64,000 bases of DNA from Bacteroidia bacterium (GCA_019695215.1 JAIBAK010000001.1:17028-81027); one strand, 5' to 3'; positions 16,143 through 38,827 are shown, counted from the stretch's first letter. Notes: generated by a model not told the origin, from the sequence alone. A program made the numbers and translations.

Positions 16143-17369
16143 ATGAACTGGTTACTCTCACGCACCAAAGGCGATTTTGTTATATGGGCTATTGTAATGA
16201 TACTTTCCCTTTTCGGGGTATTGGCCGTATATAGCTCTACCGGAACTTTGGCGTATAAACGTTATGCAGGCAATACCGAATTGTTGCTGGCAAAACATTT
16301 ATTTCTTTTGCTGATGGGAATCGGGTTCATGTATCTGGCACATTTGGTTGATTACCGTTATTACTACGGAATTGCAAGGGTGCTGCTTATTATTTCAGTT
16401 CCTCTTTTAATTTACACCTTACTTTTTGCTCCTGTTATCAATGATGCCCGCAGGTGGATCAGCATACCCATTATAAACGCTACTTTTCAAACATCTGATT
16501 TGGCCAAGGTGGCGCTTATTATGTATGTGGCACGTATGTTATCCAAAAAGCAGGAAGACATTAAAGATTTTAAGAAAGCATTTCTGCCCATTATTTCGGC
16601 AGTGGTTGGTGTTTGCCTGCTCATAGCTCCGGCAAATCTTTCTACTGCGCTGGTACTTTTTTCTACCTGCGCCATTGTTATGTTCATTGGCCGCATCAAT
16701 TTTAAATACCTTATGTTAATGGCCGGGGCAGGCATCGTTGGTTTGGGATTATTAATTGGTATTTTATTCTCCGTGCCTGAGGAATCGTTGGGGAAAATAG
16801 GAGGGCGTTTTCTGACATGGAAATCCCGTATAGAGGTATTTGTGAACCACGATAGGGAAGCAAATAAAGATAACGACTACCAAAGCAAACAGGCAAAAAT
16901 TGCTATTGCCACCGGTGGACTTTTTGGAAAAGGGCCGGGCAACAGTACGCAGCGTAATTTTTTACCTCACCCGTATTCCGATTTTATTTTTGCAGTGATT
17001 ATTGAGGAATATGGTTTTGGAGGAGGCTTATTTGTCATATTTATTTATCTGCTTTTTTTGTGGCGCACCATTCGTATTGTGGTGCGAAGTCCCAAAGCAT
17101 TCGGGGCACTGCTGGCTTTCGGGCTAAGTTTGAGTATGGTAATACAGGCTTTTATTAATATGGCCGTTGCTGTAAATATTTTTCCTGTAACAGGTTTGCC
17201 ATTGCCATTGGTGAGTATGGGCGGAACATCCTTGTGGTTTACCAGTTTTGCATTCGGAGTTATTTTAAGTGTGAGCAGGTTTATTGACGGCTCTGAAGAA
17301 ATGGGTGCCGGCAATACCGAAACAACTGTTTCTTCCAATACAACCGGAGAGGAGGCTGCCCATGTCTGA
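16143..17369 (+). CDS. ftsW: SEDS-family peptidoglycan polymerase FtsW
   Basis: 10-TM SEDS pattern (QTSDLAKV, PHPYSDFIFAVI, PVTGLPLPLVSMGGTS). dcw position. Confidence 0.88.
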   Translation: MNWLLSRTKGDFVIWAIVMILSLFGVLAVYSSTGTLAYKRYAGNTELLLAKHLFLLLMGIGFMYLAHLVDYRYYYGIARVLLIISVPLLIYTLLFAPVINDARRWISIPIINATFQTSDLAKVALIMYVARMLSKKQEDIKDFKKAFLPIISAVVGVCLLIAPANLSTALVLFSTCAIVMFIGRINFKYLMLMAGAGIVGLGLLIGILFSVPEESLGKIGGRFLTWKSRIEVFVNHDREANKDNDYQSKQAKIAIATGGLFGKGPGNSTQRNFLPHPYSDFIFAVIIEEYGFGGGLFVIFIYLLFLWRTIRIVVRSPKAFGALLAFGLSLSMVIQAFINMAVAVNIFPVTGLPLPLVSMGGTSLWFTSFAFGVILSVSRFIDGSEEMGAGNTETTVSSNTTGEEAAHV

Positions 17370-24901: not shown

Positions 24902-27256
24902 TTATTCCTTTATTATTTTATGGGAACTCAACATGTTATCACCATTAAATACCTGAATGAAAAACAGTCCCGGAGTAAAGTATTCGGTATTGATTTCCAG
25001 TGATTTATTTCCTTTTTCAAATATTGTTGAATACATCTCCCGGCCCAGAATATCGTATAAAACTACCCTCAAAGGCAATTCCACCGACTTGTCTGAACGC
25101 GCTATCTTCAGCACCTCATTCACCGGATTCGGGAAAAGGACAATTCCGGCTTCGGTTAATTCAACCACACCGGTATTCACGTGAATTTTTAACCTCACCG
25201 TATCGTGCCCGATAAGTACAGGAAGTGTTTTGCGGTAATAACCTTTAAAAAAGAGTACACCGCCATTCTCAATTCCTACCAGCATATCAGGTATGGTATC
25301 ATTGTCAAAATTGGCTACTACCGGATTGCATTTACTTAAACTGCCTATTATTTTATTGCCATACACCAAATCACCGGGACCAATCAATATGGAATCAATC
25401 TCAGGAAAAGTTGACTCTAATCCGGCTTGCATGCGGTAACTTCTAACACGTCCGCCAAAGGAACCTACCATAATTTCAAGCATGCTGTCGCTGGCAAAAT
25501 TGTAAACATATGGTGATGCGTAACCAAAATATTGTCCCGGCTTTTCTTTGCTTAAAATTTGCCCCAGCGTATCGGCTGCCGGCACAGTCGAAAATTTGTA
25601 ACCTATAGTAAAAGTATCAATGTTTCGGTAGTAATGAATAAGCCCCAAATCGGTTCCAACCAACAGATCACATTTCCCGTCAAGATTCATGTCATAAATG
25701 CAGGGGGAAGCAATTCCGTTTACCTGAATATTCTGAAAGTTTAATTCGGGAGAACCAAATGTCATATTCCCGCTTCCGGTGGCAGTAGTGTTGTGAATAA
25801 ACGTGAGTGTACCATCAGAGGAGCCTAAAATAATATCGGGTTTTCCGTCACCGTCAACATCTCCTGTTGCGGGTTTTACATACGAAAGATTCAGATTTGA
25901 GATGGAAAGATAATTTGTATCCTGTATTTTATATACAGGCTGTTGATTGGTTCCCATATTTTGAAACAACACCAGTTGGTCTTTTGTGTCGTTAGTATAT
26001 TCCCAGTCTCCGCCAGTAGCCACAATCAAATCTTTTTTGCCATCCTGATTGTAGTCAAGTAAAGCAGGCACAAAACGCCATCCTATATCTATCGATTCAT
26101 CAAGCAGAAAATTCTTTTTAACAAACGTGAAAGCAGCCGCAGCACCCGTGCCTGTGTTCTGATAAAGCCAGATATTATCTTTTGTTTTTACCTCTTCCAC
26201 ACCGTTTGGAGCAATAACCAAATCTTTTTTGCCATCATTATTCAGGTCAACAAAATAGGCAGCAAGTGCCGAAGAAAATTTTGCTCTGGTTGTATTTTTT
26301 GGGGTTAACGAATCATAGGAGATAAGTGTATCAGCACTAAAACCTTTATATTTCCAGTTTAGCTCCTTTCGCCCGTTTTTAACGTAGTACATAAAATCAT
26401 TCAGCACGTCTCCCGCATATAAGTCCATATCTCCGTCAGCATCGTTATCAAATAAGGTAAGGGTGGTGCCAAAGTGCGCATTTGTTTTAAAATATATTTT
26501 TTCGCAACTCATCCCTAACTGCACTCTGTCGGTTACCAATACCGAACCCCAGCACCGATCGACATTGTAAAATTTAAACGAGTCAACCGGTAATCCCTGT
26601 TCCACCTGATAGTTTTTATAATATTCGATATAGGCTCCCAAACTGCTCATGGCAACTATGTCCATGTCTCCGTCTCCGTCTACATCGGCTACGTCAGGTA
26701 AATCAGTTGGGCTCACCGACAATGGAAATGTATCAACAAAATAGTAAATGCACTTTAGTTGCGGGGTGACAAGTTGAAATTGCAGGTTGCTGCCGGTGCT
26801 GGTATTTTTAAATACGCGGATATGGTTGTTTTGAATAAATAATCCGGGTACAGGAATGTCGGGGTCGGCATTAGTAATAATATCCAGTTTGCCGTCATTA
26901 TTATAATCAAAAGTGCGCACCCAGTTTAATAAACGCGGAAACTTGCTTCGGTATTCAGGGGCGTATTGAAATTTAATTTGTCCGGTGTTTCCAATATTTA
27001 AATACGGGTGGACTAAAAAACCCATGCGGTCAAATACCAGCAGGTCTAATTTGCCATCTCCGTTCAGGTCAATATTGTTAAACTGCGGGGCTGTGAATCC
27101 TCCGGTAAACGGATATGGAATGGTGTCGTTTGCGGCATTCAAAAATTTAAGGGTGTTTGCGTATTGAAACCCTATATCCTGCGCCCCTGCCGTAAAAACA
27201 AGGCAATTCACAAATAAGATGGTGTATAAAGTTTTTTTCATAGACGCTTTGGTCAT
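24902..27256 (-). CDS. FG-GAP/VCBS repeat protein with a T9SS C-terminal sorting domain
   Basis: Nine or more Ca-binding-type DxNxDGxxD loops (DLNGDGKLDLLV, DVDGDGDMDIVA, DVDGDGKPDIIL...). The C-terminal CTD is FPNPVNEVLKI...GLFFIQV. The signal peptide may start at the second ATG, 27241. Confidence 0.8.
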   Translation of the reverse strand: MTKASMKKTLYTILFVNCLVFTAGAQDIGFQYANTLKFLNAANDTIPYPFTGGFTAPQFNNIDLNGDGKLDLLVFDRMGFLVHPYLNIGNTGQIKFQYAPEYRSKFPRLLNWVRTFDYNNDGKLDIITNADPDIPVPGLFIQNNHIRVFKNTSTGSNLQFQLVTPQLKCIYYFVDTFPLSVSPTDLPDVADVDGDGDMDIVAMSSLGAYIEYYKNYQVEQGLPVDSFKFYNVDRCWGSVLVTDRVQLGMSCEKIYFKTNAHFGTTLTLFDNDADGDMDLYAGDVLNDFMYYVKNGRKELNWKYKGFSADTLISYDSLTPKNTTRAKFSSALAAYFVDLNNDGKKDLVIAPNGVEEVKTKDNIWLYQNTGTGAAAAFTFVKKNFLLDESIDIGWRFVPALLDYNQDGKKDLIVATGGDWEYTNDTKDQLVLFQNMGTNQQPVYKIQDTNYLSISNLNLSYVKPATGDVDGDGKPDIILGSSDGTLTFIHNTTATGSGNMTFGSPELNFQNIQVNGIASPCIYDMNLDGKCDLLVGTDLGLIHYYRNIDTFTIGYKFSTVPAADTLGQILSKEKPGQYFGYASPYVYNFASDSMLEIMVGSFGGRVRSYRMQAGLESTFPEIDSILIGPGDLVYGNKIIGSLSKCNPVVANFDNDTIPDMLVGIENGGVLFFKGYYRKTLPVLIGHDTVRLKIHVNTGVVELTEAGIVLFPNPVNEVLKIARSDKSVELPLRVVLYDILGREMYSTIFEKGNKSLEINTEYFTPGLFFIQVFNGDNMLSSHKIIKE

Positions 27257-27275: not shown

Positions 27276-28589
27276 ATGTACATGTCAGTCACTCAAATTT
27301 ACAATATATTTTCTGAAAAGCAAACTGTTTCAACCGATAGCAGACAGATAACTCCCGGGTGTCTTTTTTTCGCATTAAAAGGGCCGTCATTCAACGGGAA
27401 TACATTTGCTTTGAAAGCTTTGGAGTTAGGAGCATCTTACGCAGTAATTGATGAGGAGCAATACGCTACCGATTTACGGTGCATACTGGTTGACGATGTT
27501 TTAAAAACCCTGCAGCAATTAGCCACGTACCACAGGCATCAGTTAGGAATACCCGTAATTGGAATTGTGGGTTCAAACGGGAAAACCACTACCAAGGAAT
27601 TACTTGCTGCCGTACTTCAGAAAAAGTACAATTTACTGGCTACTCCGGGCAACCTCAACAACCATATTGGTGTGCCGCTTACATTATTGAAACTTACCGC
27701 AGCTCATGAAATCGCAGTAATTGAAATGGGGGCAAATCATATTGGCGAAAATGCCGAATTATGTGAAATAGTAGCTCCCGATTATGGTCTAATTACCAAT
27801 ATAGGGAAAGACCACCTGGAAGGATTTGGGAGTATAGAGGGGGTGGCCAATGCCAGCAGCGAATTATATGCGTATCTGCTGAAACACGGAGGAACAGCCT
27901 TTGTCAATTCAAACGATGAGTGGCTTATGCGAATGGCTTCGCGCCTCAGTAATAAAAAAACCTACGCGGCCAATTATCCCGGACATACTTCGGAGGCCGA
28001 TTATGAAGGGGAGTTAACGGCAGCCCGTCCTTTCATACAGTTTACTATGGACGGATTTCAGAAAACTTTTCATTCGGTTTTATCGGGAGAATATAATTTT
28101 GATAATATTATGGCAGCGGTGGCCATAGGCCGTTATTTTGGAGTGGCAATGGAACAAATTGCTGCTGGCCTGGCCGGGTATGAACCTAAAAACAACCGTT
28201 CACAAATTTTAAAAAGGGGGAATGTTACTATTTACCTCGATGCCTATAATGCTAACCCTTCAAGTATGGAAGTATCGTTGATGAATTTTGCCGCCAACGA
28301 TTTTCCGGGAAAAATTGCCATTTTGGGAGATATGTATGAACTGGGCGAATTCAGCGATAAGGAACACCAGCAAATGGCCATGCTTGCTACCGAACTCGGA
28401 CTGGAAGAGGTGTGGTTAGTGGGGCCCAGCTTTGCAAAACATGCTTCGATAGCCGGAGCAAAATCTTTTAATGATGCTGCCGAAGTAAAAAACTATATTT
28501 TGCAAAGAGATTACAGCGGCAAAACATTTTTTCTTAAAGGCTCGCGCGGAATGAAACTGGAAACAATTGCTGAAGTTTTTTCAGCCTGA
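27276..28589 (+). CDS. murF: UDP-N-acetylmuramoyl-tripeptide--D-alanyl-D-alanine ligase
   Basis: GSNGKTTTKE P-loop, DAYNANPSSM and LGDMYELG motifs. It lies outside the dcw cluster. Confidence 0.9.
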   Translation: MYMSVTQIYNIFSEKQTVSTDSRQITPGCLFFALKGPSFNGNTFALKALELGASYAVIDEEQYATDLRCILVDDVLKTLQQLATYHRHQLGIPVIGIVGSNGKTTTKELLAAVLQKKYNLLATPGNLNNHIGVPLTLLKLTAAHEIAVIEMGANHIGENAELCEIVAPDYGLITNIGKDHLEGFGSIEGVANASSELYAYLLKHGGTAFVNSNDEWLMRMASRLSNKKTYAANYPGHTSEADYEGELTAARPFIQFTMDGFQKTFHSVLSGEYNFDNIMAAVAIGRYFGVAMEQIAAGLAGYEPKNNRSQILKRGNVTIYLDAYNANPSSMEVSLMNFAANDFPGKIAILGDMYELGEFSDKEHQQMAMLATELGLEEVWLVGPSFAKHASIAGAKSFNDAAEVKNYILQRDYSGKTFFLKGSRGMKLETIAEVFSA

Positions 28590-29062
28590 TGTTTTGGGTG
28601 GATATCTTTTCAAGAGAACACAGCCTTAAAGTAAACGGGTCATTGCTTTACTAATTTGAGTACAGAAATTCCCTCATCAGTTTGAATACGGAGAAAGTAC
28701 ATTCCAGAAGGCAAATCACTGTTAACTTCAACTACGTTTTCCGCAATCCCTTCTAAGTGGAGTTTACCGGTAAAATCACTAATGCGGTAATAAAATTTGC
28801 CGGTAGCACCTTCTACAACAATGGTATTTGTAAAAGGATTGGGGTAACATTTTATCTGATTGGGAGCAACGTGCCCCGCTGAAAGAATTTCTCCGGTTAA
28901 TTGATTGCCGTAGCTACCCAAATACTCCACCGAGCAATCCGGATACACATGAAATTTCCAGTACCTTTTTTTAGTGCATCCGTTAAAGCAGTCCCCCCAC
29001 TTATAAGCAAAAACCAGTTCAGTAAAGTTAGCATATACTGAATCGGTAATATCGGGGCCATC
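28284..29062. repeat. Direct repeat copy A (murF 3' end + spacer + 3' part of the Cys-rich T9SS gene)
   Basis: Matches 33294-34075 at offset 5013. The stretch 28431-29053 is identical by eye over 623 bp. Confidence 0.9.
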
Positions 29063-29635
29063 AAAATACAAACCTTGTGCATAATAGTTTACATTAGGAA
29101 TCGATTCCGACAATTTACCTAGGGCGTGAATATTATAGTTTCGATCGCTTTTAAAACGGAAAGAAATTTTATGGAAGGCAAAATTATAGTAGCACCCATC
29201 AAGTGTTAGAAAATGCCTTGTAATAAAAGTATCAAGTAAGGCGTACCCAGAAGGGAACCCAGAATTACAAAGTTGCTTAGCCCAAGGCAGGTTTGAGTCC
29301 GATAGGAGGATGATATCGTTAACATGAAAATTTACTAATGTATGAATATTTAACGAACTAAGCAAAACCGTATCACGAGCAGGTAAAGAGTTAGCATTGT
29401 AAACAGCTAACAGGGATCGGAGCGTGGTTTCCCTCCATGCCATTGGTATATTGATGCTGTCTTTGTAACTGGAATAATTACGATAGACCCTTCTTAACGC
29501 TAAACGAGCAGCATCCTCAGAAAAAAGGTTAACAATGCTATCAGGAGCAGTGCAGGAGGAAGGTACGGTTTCCGGTTGGGCCTTGCAGGGAGTAAAGAAA
29601 GCAATGAGCAAAAGAAGCAGGATATATTTTTTCAT
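28640..29635 (-). CDS. Cys-rich secreted protein of unknown function with a T9SS C-terminal domain (paralogue A)
   Basis: Signal peptide MKKYILLLLLIAFFTPCKAQ (ATG 29635), six conserved Cys, and a YPNPFTNTIVV...GMYFLRIQ CTD. It starts 4 nt after the S8 gene stop. Confidence 0.7.
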   Translation of the reverse strand: MKKYILLLLLIAFFTPCKAQPETVPSSCTAPDSIVNLFSEDAARLALRRVYRNYSSYKDSINIPMAWRETTLRSLLAVYNANSLPARDTVLLSSLNIHTLVNFHVNDIILLSDSNLPWAKQLCNSGFPSGYALLDTFITRHFLTLDGCYYNFAFHKISFRFKSDRNYNIHALGKLSESIPNVNYYAQGLYFDGPDITDSVYANFTELVFAYKWGDCFNGCTKKRYWKFHVYPDCSVEYLGSYGNQLTGEILSAGHVAPNQIKCYPNPFTNTIVVEGATGKFYYRISDFTGKLHLEGIAENVVEVNSDLPSGMYFLRIQTDEGISVLKLVKQ

Positions 29636-29639
29636 AGGT

Positions 29640-32600
29640 CTAATTTTTAATAATTTTTTTAACGAAATTCGAGGTGCCAATCTTTATATTTAGCAAATAC
29701 ATTCCGGCTGCCACTCCTTCCATATCCATTTGAAAAATATGTTCACCCTTGGTTTTTTGACCTAAGTTTACGCTTTTTATTACTCTACCTTGCAAATCCA
29801 TCAGGATTATATGCACAGGATTTTGATCAAAGGCCGGCCAGTATTGAATGGCAACATTGTTGGCGGCAGGGTTGGGATAAATATTGCATAGGGGTACACG
29901 ATTCAATTTATTTACAGCGGTGTAATCGGGGTCATAAATAAGAAGGGAATAAGCCATTACTGGAGGAATCAATGAATAGGGGTCAGCATTGTGAGGAATG
30001 ATAGGGGTATTTGGTACAGTGGATAATTTGTAGTAATAGCCAACAACAGTGGCGGAACTTATACTTGGAGTACCATCAAACTTAACATCTGTTTCGGGTA
30101 ATAGCTGTTTATTACCTGTTGTTCCAATTATAGGACCCCAGAGGTTTGATCCGCTGTTCCTGATCCAGTACCCCGGCTTATTTGCTGAACTCACAATTTG
30201 GGCGTTTGGCCCCAGACCAGTATGAGATACTGTGGCTGTGTATTTGTAAACATCTACTGTAATGGGCCCCATGGGATAGGCATCATAATCAGATACCATA
30301 TTGTCAACAAATACGTTATTGGTAATATTGATTGGATTTGTTGGTTGAACCTCATAATGTACTACCCGATAATGGGGAAATTCAATTAATTGGATGGCAC
30401 TTCCTGCATTTAACAAGCCCCAGCCAGTGTAGACATCGTATCCACTTGAATTCCGATCAGAAGCACTATACTCTATTAGTCGTTCTATATCTTCTGGGGC
30501 TAGTTTTTCATTGTGATAACCCATAATAAGGGCAGCAACCCCACTTACATGTGGTGCTGAAGATGAGGTGCCATTAAAAGTGCGATAAGCACCTGGTGAA
30601 TTAGCTGTTGTGTACACCATTCCTTCGTAATAAGGCGCCACAACATCCAAGTGAATGCCATAATTTGATTCTCCGTGGCGATCTCCATCATTTGTACTAC
30701 CCCCAACACTAATAAGCCAGTCGTCTCCTATTTGCCAATCCTCATAGTAACTTGATGGGTAGTTTGGCAAATCGGTTAACCGATTACCACGCCCACAAAC
30801 CTGTATAAGCTCATTTTCAAATGCAAATCTTATGTTCATTTTAAGTTCAGCATACTCCGATGGCAACAATGGAGGAATCGCATCCGAGTCAAACCCCCAA
30901 CTATAGTTCGCAATATCAAGTTTGTTAACATATCCATTTGCACCACTCCCAAGTACAGCATCTAAAATAGCTGGAGTCAGGTTTGATATCTCTCTAATCC
31001 CATTATTTGGCCATATTTTCATATTGTAAAGACTTGCTCCCGGGTTGTTAAAATCATTCATGTCACCACCGGCAACTCCTGCGACCCCAATTCCATTATT
31101 CCTTATGGCACCGCATATCCCAGCTACTGCTGTACCATGTCCGATCAAATCAATTTCGGCACTTTGGGATGTAACGGGAGGGTGGCCGCTAATGGAATAA
31201 TCCCTTCCTCCTTTAATCTTAGTATTTGTCAGCGAATTTAAGTTATTCGTTGTTCCATCAAGTGAAAAGTCCGGATGATCATGCCTGATTCCGGTATCGA
31301 AAATTCCAATCCTTACATCAGGACTTCCAAATGCCCCCATGCTCCAAGCACCTTCCGCATTAATATGTCCGTTCGTGTATATGGGGTAGTTGGTATTTGG
31401 GTGTAACCCAATTTGCTTGTCATCATAATGAGGGTCGTTTGGCGTTACAGAGTGTAAAGTTAATATCCAGTTAGGCTCGGCATACCGTATCGAAGGGAAA
31501 AGGCCATCAGTGGTGTCCCTGTCATTTAAACTGTCAAATAAAGCGCTTGAGAATAGGTTGTCGGGAATAACGACCCGGAAGGCGGCCCAAAATTTAGGGA
31601 CTTTCAATATTCGCCCTAACCTACTTGTGGTTATAGTATCGGCAGTGGTCATATTGGTATAAATCTTAATGGCAAGTCTAGAGGAGAAATCGGTTTCAGT
31701 TTTTTGATTCATACGGTTTAGAAAGGCAGAATCAACGAAATCGCTCAATGGACCAAAACGTTTTGCTTTATTGTCAATGGCTGCTGTATTTATTAAAGTA
31801 GGGTCAAACCTGATGATGAGTTCATTTTTTGGGTACAAAGGGTTGTCAAGTGTATCATATTGGATGATAAGATCATGGGTAAGTTGCGCATATTTAACAG
31901 TAACGTACTGTAAAGTTGATGAACCTGATTGGCACTGCCCTGTAACAATAATATTGTTTTGATTATCTAATGCAATGGCATTAGCTTTATCATTTCCCCC
32001 ATAAGAGTGGTTGTAGTTTATTCCCCACAAAATACTCCCATCGTTTGAGTATTTAACTGTAGCATAGTCTTGGTTGGAGCCATTAAAACAACTACCGGTT
32101 ACAATAATATTCCGGTCTTCGTCAAGCAATATTGCAGTGGCCTCATCATCCTGACTATTGGAGCCATTATAATGGATTACCCATTCCTCCTGACCGCTGG
32201 GATCATATTTGATGGTTACATATGCTTTTGATTCATTGGTGCTAGTGGAGTACCCTGTAATGTAAACATATCCTGAATCATCAATCGTAATAGAATTGGC
32301 CACATCATCTAGATCGTCTTCCCCATTAAAAGTGGAATACCAAACAACGGATAATGTAGAATCAAGTTTTATAGTTCTGCAATCTAATCCGGTGGTTAAG
32401 TTAATTACCCCACCTGTCAAATAAATGTTTCCAAAATTATCAGCAATTATATCATTTACTTGATCTATGCCAACACCCGATCCTCCTGAAATGTTAGAGC
32501 CAATGTATGAACCTGTACTCTCAGAATAACCAATTACTGCGTATTGCCATTCTGCACCACTCGTTTGTGTTCCTCCGGCAACATATACTGTTCCTGCTAA

Positions 32601-33218
32601 ATCATCATAAACAATTTTATTTGCTGCATCGTGCAGATCAAGGTTATTCCACGTTTGGCTCCATGTTAAGCTACCATTGCTTGCATAACACAAAGTAACG
32701 AAGTCAGTTTTGCTCGAACTATTATAAGTTCCCCCGCAAACAAATACAGTCCCAATATCAGTAACAGTTAAGTCTGTTCCAATATCATTAGATGACCCAG
32801 GTCCATTATACTCAGCACTCCATAGTAAAGCACCGAGCGAATTGTATTTTAATGTAATTATGTTGTTCGAGTCAATGGTAGAAGCATTTACACAACCTGT
32901 CACATAAACATTTCCTGAATCGCTAATGAAAAGAGCCATTGCAAAAGCGTCTTTTCCCGATGGCCCCGAATATTGTTGAATCCATTGTCTCAATCCTGAG
33001 GGACTAAGTTTTTCAATTAATATGTCATAATCACCGGACGTATTTATTGTCGAGCCAACAACGTAAATATTCCCAGATCCATCCGATTTTGTAGAATTTT
33101 TTTTGAAAAAATATTGAGTACCGGTAGAAGTTGCCCAAGCTTCAGATACTAGGTGCTCTTGTGCTCTTAATTCAGCAAATGGCAATAAAAAAAAAGAGGT
33201 AAGTAAGAAGAGTTTCAT
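29640..33218 (-). CDS. SBBP beta-propeller repeat / subtilisin-family (S8) serine peptidase with a T9SS C-terminal domain
   Basis: Signal peptide MKLFLLTSFFLLPFAELRAQ at ATG 33218. There are about 8 SBBP-type repeats (GNIYVVG, GNVYVTG, VTxKY..xGxxxW). The S8 triad motifs are FDTGI (Asp), GHGTAVAG (His) and GTSSSAPHVSG (Ser). The C-terminal CTD is YPNPAANNVAI...GMYLLNI. Confidence 0.85.
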   Translation of the reverse strand: MKLFLLTSFFLLPFAELRAQEHLVSEAWATSTGTQYFFKKNSTKSDGSGNIYVVGSTINTSGDYDILIEKLSPSGLRQWIQQYSGPSGKDAFAMALFISDSGNVYVTGCVNASTIDSNNIITLKYNSLGALLWSAEYNGPGSSNDIGTDLTVTDIGTVFVCGGTYNSSSKTDFVTLCYASNGSLTWSQTWNNLDLHDAANKIVYDDLAGTVYVAGGTQTSGAEWQYAVIGYSESTGSYIGSNISGGSGVGIDQVNDIIADNFGNIYLTGGVINLTTGLDCRTIKLDSTLSVVWYSTFNGEDDLDDVANSITIDDSGYVYITGYSTSTNESKAYVTIKYDPSGQEEWVIHYNGSNSQDDEATAILLDEDRNIIVTGSCFNGSNQDYATVKYSNDGSILWGINYNHSYGGNDKANAIALDNQNNIIVTGQCQSGSSTLQYVTVKYAQLTHDLIIQYDTLDNPLYPKNELIIRFDPTLINTAAIDNKAKRFGPLSDFVDSAFLNRMNQKTETDFSSRLAIKIYTNMTTADTITTSRLGRILKVPKFWAAFRVVIPDNLFSSALFDSLNDRDTTDGLFPSIRYAEPNWILTLHSVTPNDPHYDDKQIGLHPNTNYPIYTNGHINAEGAWSMGAFGSPDVRIGIFDTGIRHDHPDFSLDGTTNNLNSLTNTKIKGGRDYSISGHPPVTSQSAEIDLIGHGTAVAGICGAIRNNGIGVAGVAGGDMNDFNNPGASLYNMKIWPNNGIREISNLTPAILDAVLGSGANGYVNKLDIANYSWGFDSDAIPPLLPSEYAELKMNIRFAFENELIQVCGRGNRLTDLPNYPSSYYEDWQIGDDWLISVGGSTNDGDRHGESNYGIHLDVVAPYYEGMVYTTANSPGAYRTFNGTSSSAPHVSGVAALIMGYHNEKLAPEDIERLIEYSASDRNSSGYDVYTGWGLLNAGSAIQLIEFPHYRVVHYEVQPTNPINITNNVFVDNMVSDYDAYPMGPITVDVYKYTATVSHTGLGPNAQIVSSANKPGYWIRNSGSNLWGPIIGTTGNKQLLPETDVKFDGTPSISSATVVGYYYKLSTVPNTPIIPHNADPYSLIPPVMAYSLLIYDPDYTAVNKLNRVPLCNIYPNPAANNVAIQYWPAFDQNPVHIILMDLQGRVIKSVNLGQKTKGEHIFQMDMEGVAAGMYLLNIKIGTSNFVKKIIKN

Positions 33219-33239
33219 GATTTCATAAATTAATTTTGG

Positions 33240-33280
33240 TAAAGTTATTTGATAAAACTCAGAGAAACAAGGAAATTTCC
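33240..33280 (-). promoter_or_regulatory. Candidate promoter/operator region of the S8 peptidase gene
   Basis: The minus strand has TAACTTTA (33240-33247, one mismatch to TAnnTTTG) 21 nt upstream of the ATG. A perfect 10-bp palindrome GGAAATTTCC lies at 33271-33280. Confidence 0.3.
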
Positions 33281-33602
33281 CGAAATTATTTTTAATTTCT
33301 TTGCTGCGAATGATTTTCCGGGAAAAATTGCCATATTGGGAGATATGTATGAGCTGGGCGAATTCAGTGATAAGGAACATCAGCAAATGGCCATGCTTGC
33401 TACCGAACTCGGATTGGAAGAGGTGTGGCTGGTGGGGCCCAGTTTTGCAAAACATGCTTCGATAGCCGGAGCAAAATCTTTTAATGATGCTGCCGAAGTA
33501 AAAAACTATATTTTGCAAAGAGATTACAGCGGCAAAACATTTTTTCTTAAAGGCTCGCGCGGAATGAAACTGGAAACAATTGCTGAAGTTTTTTCAGCCT
33601 GA
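33280..33602 (+). pseudogene. Truncated second copy of the murF 3' end (about 103 C-terminal codons)
   Basis: It translates to FAANDFPGKIAILGDMYELG...IAEVFSA, identical to the MurF C-terminus. It has no Mur-ligase N-terminal or central domains. The only upstream start is a TTG at 33249. Confidence 0.85.
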
Positions 33603-34075
33603 TGTTTTGGGTGGATATCTTTTCAAGAGAACACAGCCTTAAAGTAAACGGGTCATTGCTTTACTAATTTGAGTACAGAAATTCCCTCATCAGTTTGAAT
33701 ACGGAGAAAGTACATTCCAGAAGGCAAATCACTGTTAACTTCAACTACGTTTTCCGCAATCCCTTCTAAGTGGAGTTTACCGGTAAAATCACTAATGCGG
33801 TAATAAAATTTGCCGGTAGCACCTTCTACAACAATGGTATTTGTAAAAGGATTGGGGTAACATTTTATCTGATTGGGAGCAACGTGCCCCGCTGAAAGAA
33901 TTTCTCCGGTTAATTGATTGCCGTAGCTACCCAAATACTCCACCGAGCAATCCGGATACACATGAAATTTCCAGTACCTTTTTTTAGTGCATCCGTTAAA
34001 GCAGTCCCCCCACTTATAAGCAAAAACCAGTTCAGTAAAGTTAGCATATACTGAATCGGTAATATCAGGGCCATC
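33294..34075. repeat. Direct repeat copy B
   Basis: Counterpart of 28284-29062. The stretch 33444-34066 is identical to 28431-29053. Confidence 0.9.
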
Positions 34076-34648
34076 GAATGCATAATAATTTTGACCGTAG
34101 TAGTACACCCCTGGAATCAAACTGAAAGCCTTTCCCAATGCAAACATATTATAGTTGCTGTCTGTAACAAAGTCAATGTACATCGATGGAAACAAAATGT
34201 TGTAATAGCATCGGTCATATTTTAAATGATAACGGGTAATAAAACTGTCGACAGCATAATTTCCCGATGGGCTACCCCAATCGCAAAGTTGTTTTGCCCA
34301 CATTAGATTTGAGTCTGACCGGATTGTTATAAGTTCCACTCCAAAATTTGGAAGGGTATGCATGTTCAAAATGGAAAATATGGTATCACGTGCCGGTAAG
34401 GAGTAAGCATTGTACACAGCTAATAAGGATCGAAGGGAATTTTCCCTCCATGAAGTAGGAAGATGTATGCTGTCCTTGTATGAAGAGTTATTTCTATAAA
34501 CCCTTCGGATAGTCAGACGGTCGGCATCAGTCCGGTATAAGTTTACAATGCTATCAGGAGCGATGCAGGAAGAAGGGACAATTACAGATTGTGCCCGGGT
34601 TTGAGTTAACGTAATAATAAGAATCAGTAACAGTGTATTCCTTTTCAT
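33653..34648 (-). CDS. Cys-rich secreted protein of unknown function with a T9SS C-terminal domain (paralogue B)
   Basis: 331 aa and collinear with paralogue A. The N-terminal ~190 aa are diverged, and the last 138 aa are identical at the nucleotide level. The same six Cys are present. Confidence 0.7.
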   Translation of the reverse strand: MKRNTLLLILIITLTQTRAQSVIVPSSCIAPDSIVNLYRTDADRLTIRRVYRNNSSYKDSIHLPTSWRENSLRSLLAVYNAYSLPARDTIFSILNMHTLPNFGVELITIRSDSNLMWAKQLCDWGSPSGNYAVDSFITRYHLKYDRCYYNILFPSMYIDFVTDSNYNMFALGKAFSLIPGVYYYGQNYYAFDGPDITDSVYANFTELVFAYKWGDCFNGCTKKRYWKFHVYPDCSVEYLGSYGNQLTGEILSAGHVAPNQIKCYPNPFTNTIVVEGATGKFYYRISDFTGKLHLEGIAENVVEVNSDLPSGMYFLRIQTDEGISVLKLVKQ

Positions 34649-34702
34649 TTGGCTAATTTAGCTATTTTTTAAAGAAATAGGAATGCAGCCCGATTTTAAT
34701 CT

Positions 34703-35731
34703 TTAGCCTTTAAAATGATTCCACCCCTGCGCTGTAATATCATGTACATTTCCTGCTTTGGTAATAAGTTGCACCCCGGCACTTTTTTCGGTGGCGTGGC
34801 CTATTATACTCACTTCAGAAACATTTTTGATTTTATCGTAATCGTTTTGCGAAATGGTAAATAAAAGTTCATAATCTTCTCCTCCGTTTAAGGCGCACAT
34901 GGTTGGGTCAAGATTAAATGCACGGGCCATATCAAAAGTGTTTTGAGCAATCGGAATTTTTTCTTCGTACAATTTCATTCCTACCCCCGACTGGTTACAT
35001 AAATGCAGCATCTCTGAAGCAAGTCCGTCAGAGATATCAATCATTGCGGTTGGTTTCACTTCTATGGTTTGCAGCAACTGGTAAATATCTGCTCTGGCTT
35101 CCGGTTTTAATTGCCTCTCTAAAATGTATTCATTTCCTCCTAAATCGGGCTGAGCAGTTTGGTTTTCGAGAAATACCCTTTTCTCTCTTTCCAGCAATTG
35201 ATATCCAACATAAGCAGCACCTAAATCTCCGCTCACGCAAAGTAAATCTCCTTCCTTAGCCGTATTTCGGTACACTAGTTCTTTTTCATCTGCTTCGCCA
35301 ATGGCCGTTAAACTTAACACTAATCCCTGCCGCGAAGTGGAGGTATCACCACCTACCAAATCCACCCCGTATTTTTTGCAGGCAAGTTCTATTCCGGCAT
35401 ATAGTTCTTCTACAGCTTCTAATGTAAATTTACTTGATATCGCCAAGGCAATGGTAATTTGCCGTGGTACAGCATTCATAGCAAAAATGTCGGATAAATT
35501 TACCACCACAGCTTTATATCCCAGGTGTTTCAGCGGCATATACATCAGGTCAAAATGAATGCCCTCCAGCAGCATATCTGTACTTACCACCGTAGTACTT
35601 TTTCGGTTGGCAATTACAGCCGCATCATCTCCCGCTCCTTTAAGTGAGGAAGGATTGATTAATTTTATTTTTTCAGTAAGGTGTTTAATTAATCCGAATT
35701 CACCCAGTTCGTTTATTGTTTGTTGTGTCAT
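34703..35731 (-). CDS. thiL: Thiamine-monophosphate kinase
   Basis: GEFGLIKHL, GAGDDAAVI, STDMLLEGIHFD and GGDTS motifs of the ThiL/AIR-synthase-related family. Confidence 0.88.
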   Translation of the reverse strand: MTQQTINELGEFGLIKHLTEKIKLINPSSLKGAGDDAAVIANRKSTTVVSTDMLLEGIHFDLMYMPLKHLGYKAVVVNLSDIFAMNAVPRQITIALAISSKFTLEAVEELYAGIELACKKYGVDLVGGDTSTSRQGLVLSLTAIGEADEKELVYRNTAKEGDLLCVSGDLGAAYVGYQLLEREKRVFLENQTAQPDLGGNEYILERQLKPEARADIYQLLQTIEVKPTAMIDISDGLASEMLHLCNQSGVGMKLYEEKIPIAQNTFDMARAFNLDPTMCALNGGEDYELLFTISQNDYDKIKNVSEVSIIGHATEKSAGVQLITKAGNVHDITAQGWNHFKG

Positions 35732-35732
35732 T

Positions 35733-36449
35733 TCAATTTGTTTTATGGGTGTATTTTCCCCTCAGTTGTTTTCCTTTTATTTTTATCAGGTCATACATCA
35801 TTTCTAATCCATGCCCTACCACTTTTACCGATGAATCCTGCTGCGATCTAAGCTGAACGGGCAGGCGTTTTACTTCAAAATTGTTTTTGGCGGCCAGTAA
35901 AAATAACTCCACGTCAAAAGCGAATCCGTTTACGGTTATATCCTTAAAAATAGTAAGGGCTGTGTTCCTTGAAAAACCTTTTAATCCGCATTGTGTATCA
36001 TGAAGCCCGGCAACGCTTTTGACAAAAAGCGAAAAGCAATAACTTACCAGTTTGCGCAAGGGAGTGGTTTCGGAAAAATAATTGGATTGCGGATGATGCC
36101 TGTCACCAACTACCATCGCGTTCTGCTGTGAGCAGATGGCCCTATAAAACTGAATATAGTTTTCATAAGCAAACGGAATATCCGCGTCAGTAAATAAAAT
36201 TTCAGATCCGGTGGCGGCCAAAATTCCGGCTTTTACTGCTGCTCCTTTGCCGCTGTTGTGTGGCAAACGGACAAACCGGCAATGATAGAGGTTTGCCAGT
36301 TCCTGTGTGGCCTGATGGTCATCCGATCCATCATCCACTATAACCAGTTCATACCTGATAGATGTTGAATTAAGATAGGAAATAAAAAGAGGCAGTTGCT
36401 TTTTTAATGTGTTTGATCCGTTATATGAAGGCAAGATAATGCTGAGCAT
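35733..36449 (-). CDS. Family 2 glycosyltransferase (polyprenyl-phosphate sugar synthase-like)
   Basis: MLSIILPSYNG, VIVDDGSDD and TDADIP (DxD-type) motifs. Short soluble GT2 of DPM1/GtrB size. Confidence 0.7.
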   Translation of the reverse strand: MLSIILPSYNGSNTLKKQLPLFISYLNSTSIRYELVIVDDGSDDHQATQELANLYHCRFVRLPHNSGKGAAVKAGILAATGSEILFTDADIPFAYENYIQFYRAICSQQNAMVVGDRHHPQSNYFSETTPLRKLVSYCFSLFVKSVAGLHDTQCGLKGFSRNTALTIFKDITVNGFAFDVELFLLAAKNNFEVKRLPVQLRSQQDSSVKVVGHGLEMMYDLIKIKGKQLRGKYTHKTN

Positions 36450-36457
36450 AGCTGATA

Positions 36458-38827
36458 TCAGAAAGGATTTGTAGTTGTTTGAGCGTTTAAAAAATGTACG
36501 GGAAAGTATCGGTTATTGTGCATAAGGAAAGCTGTATCTTTTTTTAAAACGTGGCAATTTTCGGGTTTGAGTAAAAATTCATCTATGCAATAATAACTTC
36601 CGGAAGGCAAATCATCATTGTGCACGTAAATTTCCAGATTGGTTTCTTCCGGTTTAAAAGTTATCGGAAATTCAATTAATCCCCATTCGGCATCAGCAGC
36701 AACTATATTTCCGGGTGCATAAAACTGGTTGTACTGAACAGTTTCTCCCTTAATATTTTTTGTAACAAACAGAATGAAAATTCTTCCTTTTAAATCAGCC
36801 GAAATATCTTTTATCCAGAAGGAACAATTAAAACGCTCTTCGGCCGGGAGATGAAGTTTTTTACTGAGAAGTAACTGGAATTTTTTGCTTTTAATTTTTT
36901 TGCATCCTTTACTGAAGTAGCCGTTTTCTTTTCCTTGTTCGTTGTCAAAAGAAAAGTAAGTCAGATTCCCACCGGTGTCTGAAACCGATAGTCCCGATTC
37001 GCCATGAAAAGGGTAGGATGGGATTGTCTGTATCATGGACTCCTGCTGGCGATAAATACGATTGCTGTCAAACAACAATGAGTCGTAGGGTAGCTCATAT
37101 ACACCATACCCGCCCGGGCTTTCAAATATTTTTTTACATTTTAAGAACAGGTTTTTTTGAGCAGGAGGGATTTTGTCGGGCCAGGCCAGCACTAATAAGG
37201 GTTTTTTGTTAGGGTACCATTGCAGTACCTGAAGAGGCCGGTAATTTTCAAGTGCATATTGAAAATTCAGCCAGCTTTCTTTTAACGAGGAGCGACTGGA
37301 AGTCATACTCACCATAGGTAATCCGGTTTTTAATACTATTAATTCCGTGGTGAGAACTACCTGATGGTGTTGCATGCCCGTACCGAAGTTCTCGGCCCCA
37401 ACCTGAAAGAATGGAAGTGGCAGAATGGCCTGAAATGCGGAAGGAGTGATTAGGTTTATCCAATTATTTTCGGGAAGTTGGTTTGAATGGTCATCCAATG
37501 ATGGGAGGCGGTTGTTGAGTGTTTGGTTAATGAGTCTTACGTTGGCAATGGCATCCGTATACACCGCCACTGCTAAAAGTCCCATAACTAAAATTCGCAC
37601 AGGTTTTGTCCGGTTTTGCAGCAAATGATAAAAAAAATAGACTCCAGTGATATTGATGATGTAAAAGAACAGCCACGTAAATCTTCCTATTCCTCTAAGT
37701 TGTTTAAGAGGGCCTAAATAATCCATTACCTTTTCCGTGTTTATAAAAAGAATCCGGCCGCACCCGTACATGGCTACAGCCACAGCTGTCCATAAAAAAG
37801 TGTCGAGGAGCGCATTCCCGGTGACGGCTAAATGCTGCGAGGGCCTTTTGAAATTCTGCACAAGTTGCCTTATTTTACCTGATAGGAGAGCTAAGGAAGT
37901 AAGGATGCCAAATATACCTGCATAGGCCAATCCTTCCCATTCGGTCAATTCAGGTTCGAAGAAAGTTTTCACCATAAACTCATACGGCCTTGCATAAGGA
38001 TAAAACATACCCGATAACGTAGATTTATAGGCCATCATTCCCCAGGGCATGGCTGTGCGGTCGCTGGCTGTATTTAGCCAATTCATGAGCAAAAGGAGTG
38101 CAGCCACCGGCAAAATTCCCTGTATCACTACATGAAAAAAAGCAAAGCGAAATTGTTGCCGACCCTGTTGCGCTATCTGCCATACCCAGTAACCCGCCAA
38201 TAAAAATAAAAAGAAGGCGACAAAGTAAAGGTGAACTATTCCTAATAAAAACACCGCTGCTCCCGTTTGGATACTCACGGTGGTACTTGCTTTTTTATGA
38301 AAACGAATGAACTGGTAAATAAAAAAAGGTAATGCAAACTGGTAGGTGAGGCTGTAGTGTCCCTGTAACCTTATTACTTGAGGGGAGAGGTAACTTATTC
38401 CAATAGCAAACACACAGGACCAAAGTCCGGGAATAGTTAAGGAGCGCAGAATAAGATAAAGGAACAGGGTACACAAAACAATGGATAAGAGAGGAGCAAG
38501 GTTGGTGAGTGCTATAAGTGTGCTATCTGTTTCTACGTAGGGAGAAAGTAGTTTTAGCGGAATGGAGTACAAGGGTTCGCAACCGGTAAAAAAAATACTT
38601 TCCCTGAAAGGATAATTCATGGCCTGCTGCGTGCCGTAGGACGAATCGAATTTAATGTGAAAAAGGGCGGTGAAGTACGTTTGGAAACCATCTCCCCCGG
38701 TGTTATAAAAAACATGTCCGGGATTGGTGAGCAGCGGCCAAAAAAAAGCAGCAAGAAAGGCGAGTGACCCTGTCAAAGTGCACCACAGCCACCCATCAAT
38801 ATGTATTGCTTTCTTCCGTATCTCCAT
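36458..38827 (-). CDS. Large polytopic membrane protein with a ~330-aa C-terminal soluble domain (possible GT-C/YfhO-like glycosyltransferase)
   Basis: The first ~450 aa contain about 12 hydrophobic segments, with an acidic first loop (NTGGDGFQTYF). The function is inferred only from the architecture and the adjacent GT2 gene. Confidence 0.35.
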   Translation of the reverse strand: MEIRKKAIHIDGWLWCTLTGSLAFLAAFFWPLLTNPGHVFYNTGGDGFQTYFTALFHIKFDSSYGTQQAMNYPFRESIFFTGCEPLYSIPLKLLSPYVETDSTLIALTNLAPLLSIVLCTLFLYLILRSLTIPGLWSCVFAIGISYLSPQVIRLQGHYSLTYQFALPFFIYQFIRFHKKASTTVSIQTGAAVFLLGIVHLYFVAFFLFLLAGYWVWQIAQQGRQQFRFAFFHVVIQGILPVAALLLLMNWLNTASDRTAMPWGMMAYKSTLSGMFYPYARPYEFMVKTFFEPELTEWEGLAYAGIFGILTSLALLSGKIRQLVQNFKRPSQHLAVTGNALLDTFLWTAVAVAMYGCGRILFINTEKVMDYLGPLKQLRGIGRFTWLFFYIINITGVYFFYHLLQNRTKPVRILVMGLLAVAVYTDAIANVRLINQTLNNRLPSLDDHSNQLPENNWINLITPSAFQAILPLPFFQVGAENFGTGMQHHQVVLTTELIVLKTGLPMVSMTSSRSSLKESWLNFQYALENYRPLQVLQWYPNKKPLLVLAWPDKIPPAQKNLFLKCKKIFESPGGYGVYELPYDSLLFDSNRIYRQQESMIQTIPSYPFHGESGLSVSDTGGNLTYFSFDNEQGKENGYFSKGCKKIKSKKFQLLLSKKLHLPAEERFNCSFWIKDISADLKGRIFILFVTKNIKGETVQYNQFYAPGNIVAADAEWGLIEFPITFKPEETNLEIYVHNDDLPSGSYYCIDEFLLKPENCHVLKKDTAFLMHNNRYFPVHFLNAQTTTNPF

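Follow-up and report, generated by a model that had tools for sequence, protein, structure and literature searches.

The convergent genes murF and thiL lie within a window of 64,000 nucleotides from a Bacteroidia bacterium (GCA_019695215.1 JAIBAK010000001.1:17028-81027), and between them stand two paralogous genes for Cys-rich cargo proteins of the type IX secretion system (T9SS), termed gene A and gene B, a gene encoding an S8 peptidase, and an orphan 3' end of murF that accompanies the intact gene as a truncated second copy (Table 1). The origin of this orphan end, termed m', and of the direct repeat to which it belongs is the subject of the present analysis. All coordinates are positions in the window; copy 1 and copy 2 are the left and right copies of the repeat, and the core is its 623-bp tract.

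Table 1. Features of the locus between murF and thiL, by position in the window
Feature	Position	Strand	Description
murF (intact)	27276..28589	+	UDP-MurNAc-pentapeptide synthetase, 437 aa; Pfam Mur_ligase, Mur_ligase_M, Mur_ligase_C
murF codons 338-385, copy 1 (c1 allele)	28287..28430	+	11 silent sites relative to copy 2
Core, copy 1	28431..29053		last 159 nt of murF, 50-nt spacer, stop codon and 137 terminal codons of gene A, which encode its T9SS C-terminal sorting domain among others
Gene A	28640..29635	-	Cys-rich T9SS cargo protein, 331 aa
S8 peptidase gene	29640..33218	-	S8 (subtilase) peptidase, 1192 aa from MKLFLL; beta-propeller repeats and T9SS sorting domain (Pfam)
u	33219..33299	-	S8 upstream region, 81 nt
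Illegitimate joint	33297..33300		u joined to murF codon 337/338; microhomology of 2-5 nt
m'	33300..33602	+	orphan murF 3' end, codons 338-437 and stop, c2 allele
Core, copy 2	33444..34066		identical to core copy 1 (alignment)
Gene B	33653..34648	-	331-aa paralogue of gene A
thiL	34703..35731	-	thiamine-monophosphate kinase type; Pfam AIRS/AIRS_C; right-hand conserved flank of the islet

The islet between murF and thiL and its direct repeat

Four informative relatives, L001-L004, were obtained from a scan of species-representative genomes with MurF, and a metagenome scan with murF returned only one close contig, the JGI metagenome contig L038; the activated-sludge metagenome assembly L081 was compared as well. 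The murF orthologues are colinear in all six and thiL is colinear in L001-L004 and L081, the neighbors of the locus in L081 being housekeeping genes, while the content of the gap differs from one relative to the next. In L003 and L004 (~70% nucleotide identity) murF is directly followed by thiL and the islet is empty, and L002 (~88%) carries a single FG-GAP T9SS gene there. A single gene of the A/B family occupies the gap in L081 (~84%), with a signal-peptide end like that of gene B beside thiL, and L038 (~93%) shows the order murF, gene, S8. The order in L001 (backbone 80-90%) is murF, one A/B-type gene, S8 and thiL, with u abutting the thiL stop codon and without a murF fragment. The layout with gene A, S8, the murF fragment and gene B was seen only in the window among the relatives compared. 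Across this group of Bacteroidia, the gap between the two convergent genes is thus a variable islet that houses genes for T9SS-secreted cargo, and the comparison of synteny downstream of murF, to which an earlier note on this DNA had pointed, yielded alternative layouts in every relative.

Self-BLAST and global alignment identified one direct repeat, the only one of at least 60 nt in the window, which pairs 28287-29582 with 33300-34595 at a constant offset of 5013 and 84.6% identity across 1307 aligned columns (179 mismatches, 14 gap openings). Three zones were distinguished by base-by-base alignment. Zone a (28287-28430 versus 33300-33443) is gap-free with 11 substitutions, zone b (28431-29053, equal to 33444-34066) is the 623-bp core with 0 mismatches, and together they cover 767 bp at 98.6% identity, with the copies 5,013 bp apart. 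In zone c (29054/34067 to 29582/34595) identity falls to ~47-77% per 60 columns with small gaps, and no similarity between the copies was found past 29582/34595. The self-comparison, which fixed the boundaries and the mismatch positions, agreed with the earlier note on the offset, on the mismatch-free core with its gene content (including 414 nt from the 3' end of the convergent T9SS gene) and on the drop in similarity to the right of the core, but the length of 0.78 kb given there proved too short, since the alignment runs on to 1.3 kb.

A hairpin with a 7-bp stem (GCTGAAG TTT TTTCAGC) was also observed over the last codons of murF, with a T-rich stretch after it, at 28569-28585 and again at 33582-33598. 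It may serve as a bidirectional terminator common to murF and the convergent cargo gene, and its duplication with the repeat places a second copy between gene B and the putative S8 promoter.

The left edge of copy 2 is an abrupt joint. The sequence AATTTCTT at 33292-33299 belongs to the S8 upstream region, and in L001 the same sequence directly adjoins the thiL stop codon, whereas homology to murF starts at ~33297-33300. Only TT to AATTT, that is 2-5 nt, is shared at the transition from u to m' (33299/33300), which identifies the joint as illegitimate. The one-codon indel with an extra Phe codon, counted by the earlier note as part of the repeat, lies outside it and corresponds to this microhomology. 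A 7-nt match between the end of thiL and murF codons 341-343 (AATGATT) was considered as the crossover point and rejected because murF-type TGCTGCG already stands to the left of the match. Relative to L001, the window holds a clean insertion of 1,394 bp (33300-34693), which comprises the murF fragment together with gene B and the spacer upstream of that gene.

The same clone was found by exact-protein look-ups in 16 runs or assemblies, with 99.3-100% identity outside the 11 sites of single-nucleotide polymorphisms (SNPs) in zone a. A look-up with murF from its first ATG found no record in the public assemblies searched, and one from the second ATG (27282, two codons downstream) gave a match on record. 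The joint between u and m' is 100% identical in L037 and L083-L088, which represent seven different samples, and in every contig the SNPs of the c2 type are linked to u and those of the c1 type to upstream murF. With no more than 2-5 bases in common, the two sequences could not have been fused by an assembler, and the joint is therefore real and no assembly chimera.

In the region u, a -7 box of the Bacteroidota type (TAACTTTA) precedes the ATG by 29 nt, with a TTG ~20 nt further up. These motifs suggest a promoter of the S8 gene inside u, in which case expression of S8 need not depend on the murF fragment. A minus-strand open reading frame (ORF) of 1,292 aa (29640..33518), read as an N-terminal extension of the S8 protein over the fragment, was dismissed as an artifact of a far-upstream TTG, since 33218 is where the signal peptide begins and colinearity with L001 ends at 33299.

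Two murF alleles in a mosaic locus

The 11 substitutions in zone a (28292, 28295, 28298, 28322, 28340, 28355, 28367, 28401, 28416, 28418 and 28430) are silent without exception, the murF-frame translations of 28287-28430 and 33300-33443 being identical. This settles the earlier count of 11-12 at exactly 11, with the supposed extra Phe not among them, and bears out the claim that each is synonymous in the murF frame. Zone a offers 29.3 synonymous and 114.7 non-synonymous sites, and the probability that 9 transitions and 2 transversions placed randomly would all be silent is ~1e-6, while in the other five frames the same 11 differences would alter 5-10 residues. The number of synonymous substitutions per site (dS) between the two murF ends is 0.52 and the non-synonymous equivalent (dN) is 0. 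Whole-gene dS values of murF between the window and its orthologues are 0.20 (L038), 0.41 (L001), 0.75 (L081) and 0.94 (L002), with dN/dS of ~0.05; the divergence between the two murF ends matches that seen between orthologues from distinct species-level lineages. Polarization on four relatives assigned at least 5 of the changes to the intact copy and at least 2-4 to the fragment, and every one of them is silent.

A search for signs of decay in the 303 nt of the fragment revealed no frameshift, stop codon or replacement change, so that the fragment is truncated yet undecayed, unlike a decaying pseudogene. Mostly replacement changes are expected from drift in place and none were seen, suggesting that both ends were working murF alleles until recently. 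The derivation of the fragment from a functional murF allele of another lineage, as the earlier note had proposed, is supported by this dS with a dN of 0, by the silent changes on both copies and by the start of the fragment at an illegitimate joint. As a practical rule, a gene fragment that differs from its intact counterpart by silent changes only can be taken as the mark of recent import from another lineage and not of decay in place.

The genes around the repeat are mosaics as well. Gene A is a chimera, with an N-terminal half (29054-29582, N_div) of the L038 type, 96-100% identical to the gene of that contig, and a C-terminal part identical to that of gene B. The N-terminal half of gene B (34067-34595, N2) is 99-100% identical to the single A/B-type gene of L001, and its signal-peptide end (34596-34648) is of the type seen beside thiL in L081. 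The S8 cassette is 97-100% identical to those of L001 and L038, whose backbones are only 80-93% identical to the window, and this excess of identity over the backbone indicates that the cassette moved recently between lineages.

The core itself varies between orthologues, with ~91% identity to L001, 61-79% to L038 and 79-85% to L081, and is thus not a constrained or intrinsically invariant sequence. Its perfect identity between the two copies points to a recent conversion, or to a replacement from the same donor, in line with the homogenization put forward in the earlier note. L038, the nearest relative of both the N-terminal half of gene A and S8 (96-100%), has a different C-terminal part and spacer, which makes it most likely that the core was copied from copy 2 into copy 1, a direction that would have given gene A the sorting domain of gene B. 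No genome in the state before the conversion was found among the relatives searched.

Several further observations concern the islet and its surroundings. The family of Cys-rich 331-aa T9SS cargo proteins behaves as a set of three shuffled modules, namely a signal-peptide end, an N-terminal half and a C-terminal part with the sorting domain, which occur in at least four combinations among the window, L001, L038 and L081; Por_Secre_tail is the sole recognized domain, found by Pfam at residues 279-343 of the ORF 28640..29680. Within the protease gene, a patch of ~500 bp (30757-31254) is 72-92% identical to L001 and L038, which match each other at 97-100% there, and represents a second, smaller recombination patch. 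The FG-GAP T9SS gene of L002 is a paralogue of the window gene at 24902..27256. Downstream of thiL, the genes at 35733-38827, one for a GT2 glycosyltransferase and the other for a membrane protein of 789 aa (annotated as DUF6311 in L081), are present in L002 and L081 and absent in L001 (locus 17031 to 17241), a further presence/absence difference beside the islet. L002 (CAZHTC010000002.1) is titled 'uncultured Bifidobacteriaceae bacterium', yet it is colinear and ~88% identical, with T9SS cargo genes, and is probably mislabelled or mis-binned.

Proposed history and its alternatives

The murF fragment is probably the recombination scar of islets from two related lineages that were joined and whose core was later converted. 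From the anatomy of the locus we infer the following order and direction of events, with homology-facilitated illegitimate recombination (HFIR) as the mechanism. In event 1, an islet of type P (murF-[gene A]-S8-thiL) and one of type Q (murF-[gene B]-thiL) would have been joined in one chromosome by a single homologous crossover within a flanking gene together with a single illegitimate joint, the latter linking the P end just before the thiL stop codon to the Q end at murF codon 337/338. In the favored, thiL-anchored polarity, a Q-type fragment reaching from inside murF through gene B into thiL would have entered a P-type genome and added the 1,394 bp of 33300-34693, leaving the resident DNA intact. 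Both alleles would have evolved as working murF until this event, which would be too recent for decay to have set in. In event 2, a 623-bp tract of conversion or replacement would have overwritten the murF end, the spacer and the native C-terminal sorting domain of gene A in copy 1.

Under HFIR, the insertion would have arisen from linear incoming DNA anchored through RecA. Three features expected of such an insertion are found here: a colinear homologous flank (murF and thiL against L001-L004 and L081), another end joined with a few nucleotides of microhomology at 33299/33300, and a diverged origin, seen in the dS of 0.52 and in N-terminal halves of genes A and B that are 96-100% identical to different relatives. 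No function as a device is attributed to the arrangement.

Four points weigh against this history. No close relative spans the thiL side, and donor and recipient are indistinguishable. The course of events was more tangled than two steps suggest, as L001 fuses the N-terminal half of gene B to the signal-peptide end of gene A and S8 at 97-100% identity, which means that other recombinants of the same modules circulate. The linkage in the window across the 623-bp perfect repeat is provisional; the same assembly graph would also fit a single-copy chromosome plus a 5,013-bp circle. Finally, natural competence or another route of DNA entry would have to be assumed for this organism.

The polarity of event 1 is the part for which a competing account has the most to offer. 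Either the fragment arrived with gene B, or the intact 3' end arrived with gene A and S8, and the anatomy slightly favors the former. In the murF-anchored version, a Q-type resident (murF(c2)-gene B-thiL) would have taken up a P-type fragment (the 3' part of murF, gene A, S8 and u), so that the 3' end of the intact gene would be the import and the fragment the displaced original end of the resident. The end product would be identical, L081 shows that relatives exist with a Q-type layout of one gene, its signal peptide being of the gene B type and located beside thiL, the S8 cassette is a recent arrival common to lineages at 97-100% identity, and the identity between the window and L038 is patchy along murF (90-100%), which is compatible with a crossover inside that gene. 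A donor fragment ending exactly at the thiL stop codon would however be needed, and the joint would lie 300 bp inside a homologous stretch, a geometry less natural than a joint at the end of homology. The thiL-anchored insertion is preferred because it places the resident breakpoint at the thiL stop codon, precisely where homology ends, so that just one end, that of the donor, is arbitrary. To fix the polarity, thiL was examined for a foreign tract, and identity to L081, L002 and L001 shows no step along the gene. The murF-anchored version is regarded as rather unlikely.

A second alternative attributes the layout to mis-resolved assembly, the true state being a single-copy chromosome (murF-core-gene B N-half-thiL) with a 5,013-bp circle or tandem amplification, or genotypes that differ by sample. 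The de Bruijn graph is the same for both states, and the public contigs of the clone include many arrangements. Contigs end at the core edges in L072-L074, L076, L077, L083 and L085, and those crossing the core are of the parental type (L078-L080), of the deletion type (L035, L036, which run murF(c1)-core-gene B-thiL) or of the amplification or circle type (L084, which runs u-m'(c2)-core-gene A-S8), while no short contig was found crossing copy 2 in the configuration of the window. Copy 1, by comparison, is crossed in that configuration by L078, L079 and L080, and at least six samples have contigs that break off at the edges of the repeat, which is the behavior expected of two chromosomal copies. 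Both reciprocal hybrids of the 11 SNPs occur (L036, L077 and L079 versus L083 and L085), which is typical of bubble popping, and a 5-kb circle would hold only a protease and a cargo gene, with no replication or integration function. Mis-resolution is therefore considered very unlikely.

The mixed contigs were at one point read as recombinants, L035 (all c1 SNPs, core, gene B, thiL) as proof of a deletion variant and L036 and L077 (c1 at 7 sites, c2 at 4) as evidence of a second crossover or a longer conversion tract. Both readings were withdrawn because the reciprocal hybrid L083/L085, the amplification path L084 and the parental paths L078-L080 turned up. The segment 28368-28400 and the core are shared graph nodes, so the four SNPs between them look like an assembler bubble, and the mixed contigs would be the pattern expected when an assembler chooses paths and pops bubbles across a repeat that exceeds the read length; they are not counted as recombinants. 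Recombination within the identical core makes no new junction, so that short reads are blind to such events. For annotation and metagenomics, this is a warning: short-read assemblers yield every possible chimera across the 623-bp core, and analyses of SNPs or gene content based on such assemblies would report false recombinants, including false murF alleles.

The 623-bp identical direct repeats do flank gene A and S8, delimiting a unit of 5,013 bp, and its deletion or amplification by RecA-type recombination, as envisaged before, is plausible but unproven. That the repeats act as a working switch in natural populations, with repeated deletion, amplification or circle excision of the unit, is considered unlikely. 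If the switch were true, deletion would leave murF-gene B-thiL (compare L035 and L036), amplification or a circle would resemble L084, and wastewater-type populations of the clone would be polymorphic for the dose of the secreted protease.

In-place tandem duplication of the 5,013-bp unit in one lineage, followed by loss of the second S8 and by separate allelic imports that produced the 11 silent differences and the divergent N-terminal halves, would explain why the copies lie head to tail at a constant offset. This course would however require four or more additional events; the N-terminal halves are ~55-60% identical to each other and each 96-100% identical to a different relative (L038 and L001), and the segment at which copy 2 ends (34596-34693) belongs to the L081 type and has no counterpart in copy 1. 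This course is judged highly improbable, even more so than an assembly error.

Almost no credence is given to two further proposals. One holds that the fragment is a living gene under purifying selection, translated as the 117-aa ORF (33249..33602) to which gene callers stretch m' from a TTG start within u. The ORF is open and has been predicted as a gene in at least six public assemblies, probably as an annotation artifact; it has no Pfam match and covers only ~70 of the ~100 murF residues matching Mur_ligase_C (308-407), its first 17 codons come from the opposite strand of the putative S8 promoter region, a young relic whose adjoining 623 bp are unchanged should in any case have kept its frame intact, and most of the polarized changes sit on the intact copy. 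The other invokes a site-specific integrative element that targets the murF 3' end and supplies a substitute for it, as e14 and phage 21 do in icd, which would give the same outcome of an intact gene and an orphan 3' end with silent differences (PMC13626634). Pfam and other scans found no integrase, excisionase, transposase or recombinase domain and no tRNA in or near the 5,013-bp unit, which consists of gene A and S8 only, and no plasmid or phage similarity and no GC anomaly or shift was found for it; on these grounds an origin as a mobile element was rejected. The repeat, with 1.3 kb of graded identity and a microhomology end, is also not a short att core.

Comparison with known systems

HFIR products have been described in Acinetobacter baylyi, Streptococcus pneumoniae and Pseudomonas stutzeri, and by conjugation in Escherichia coli (PMC3240628). 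The locus resembles them in having an anchor in a conserved gene on one flank, a junction with a microhomology of a few nucleotides on the opposite flank, and DNA that comes from a diverged relative. In contrast to those products, the present case has been reconstructed from sequence alone. No resident DNA was lost here, whereas experimental HFIR usually pairs insertion with deletion (PMC3240628), and the foreign arm brought in part of a housekeeping gene of which the recipient has its own copy, resulting in a direct repeat.

An HFIR-like displacement has been proposed for the orphan 3' ends in rhs loci and in the effector-immunity arrays of the Vibrio cholerae type VI secretion system (PMC5361080). 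As in these arrays, a new module has been added beside its predecessor, with a second cargo gene and a stranded 3' gene end as remnants, and the locus is a hot spot of exchange among related lineages. The stranded end here derives from a flanking essential cell-wall gene instead of a polymorphic toxin, and the cargo genes encode T9SS-secreted proteins without any immunity logic.

In E. coli K-12, the icd and icdC ends flank the prophage e14, the excision of which switches the ends with mostly silent changes (PMC13626634, citing Hill et al. 1989). Both loci carry the 3' end of a housekeeping gene twice, intact and orphan, and in both the loss of the insert joins the gene to the orphan end. While e14 uses its own site-specific system, the present locus has no recombinase and a long graded repeat, and recombination in its 623-bp core would leave no sequence signature.

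Gene conversion, or concerted evolution, between bacterial paralogues leaves a sharply bounded identical tract in otherwise diverged paralogues, which ends where homology ends. The tract described here differs in spanning a gene boundary, from the murF end through the spacer to the end of the cargo gene, and in swapping a T9SS sorting domain.

HFIR and the C-terminal displacement arrays would be the closest matches at the level of process, and the locus is a well-resolved case of known processes, with no new mechanism or element. It provides a clean natural example, from uncultured Bacteroidia, of the way in which conserved housekeeping genes can enclose an islet of genes for secreted proteins that is rebuilt over time. 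Relatives at the species level exchange DNA, one illegitimate joint leaves part of an essential gene stranded, and a later conversion replaces a T9SS sorting domain.

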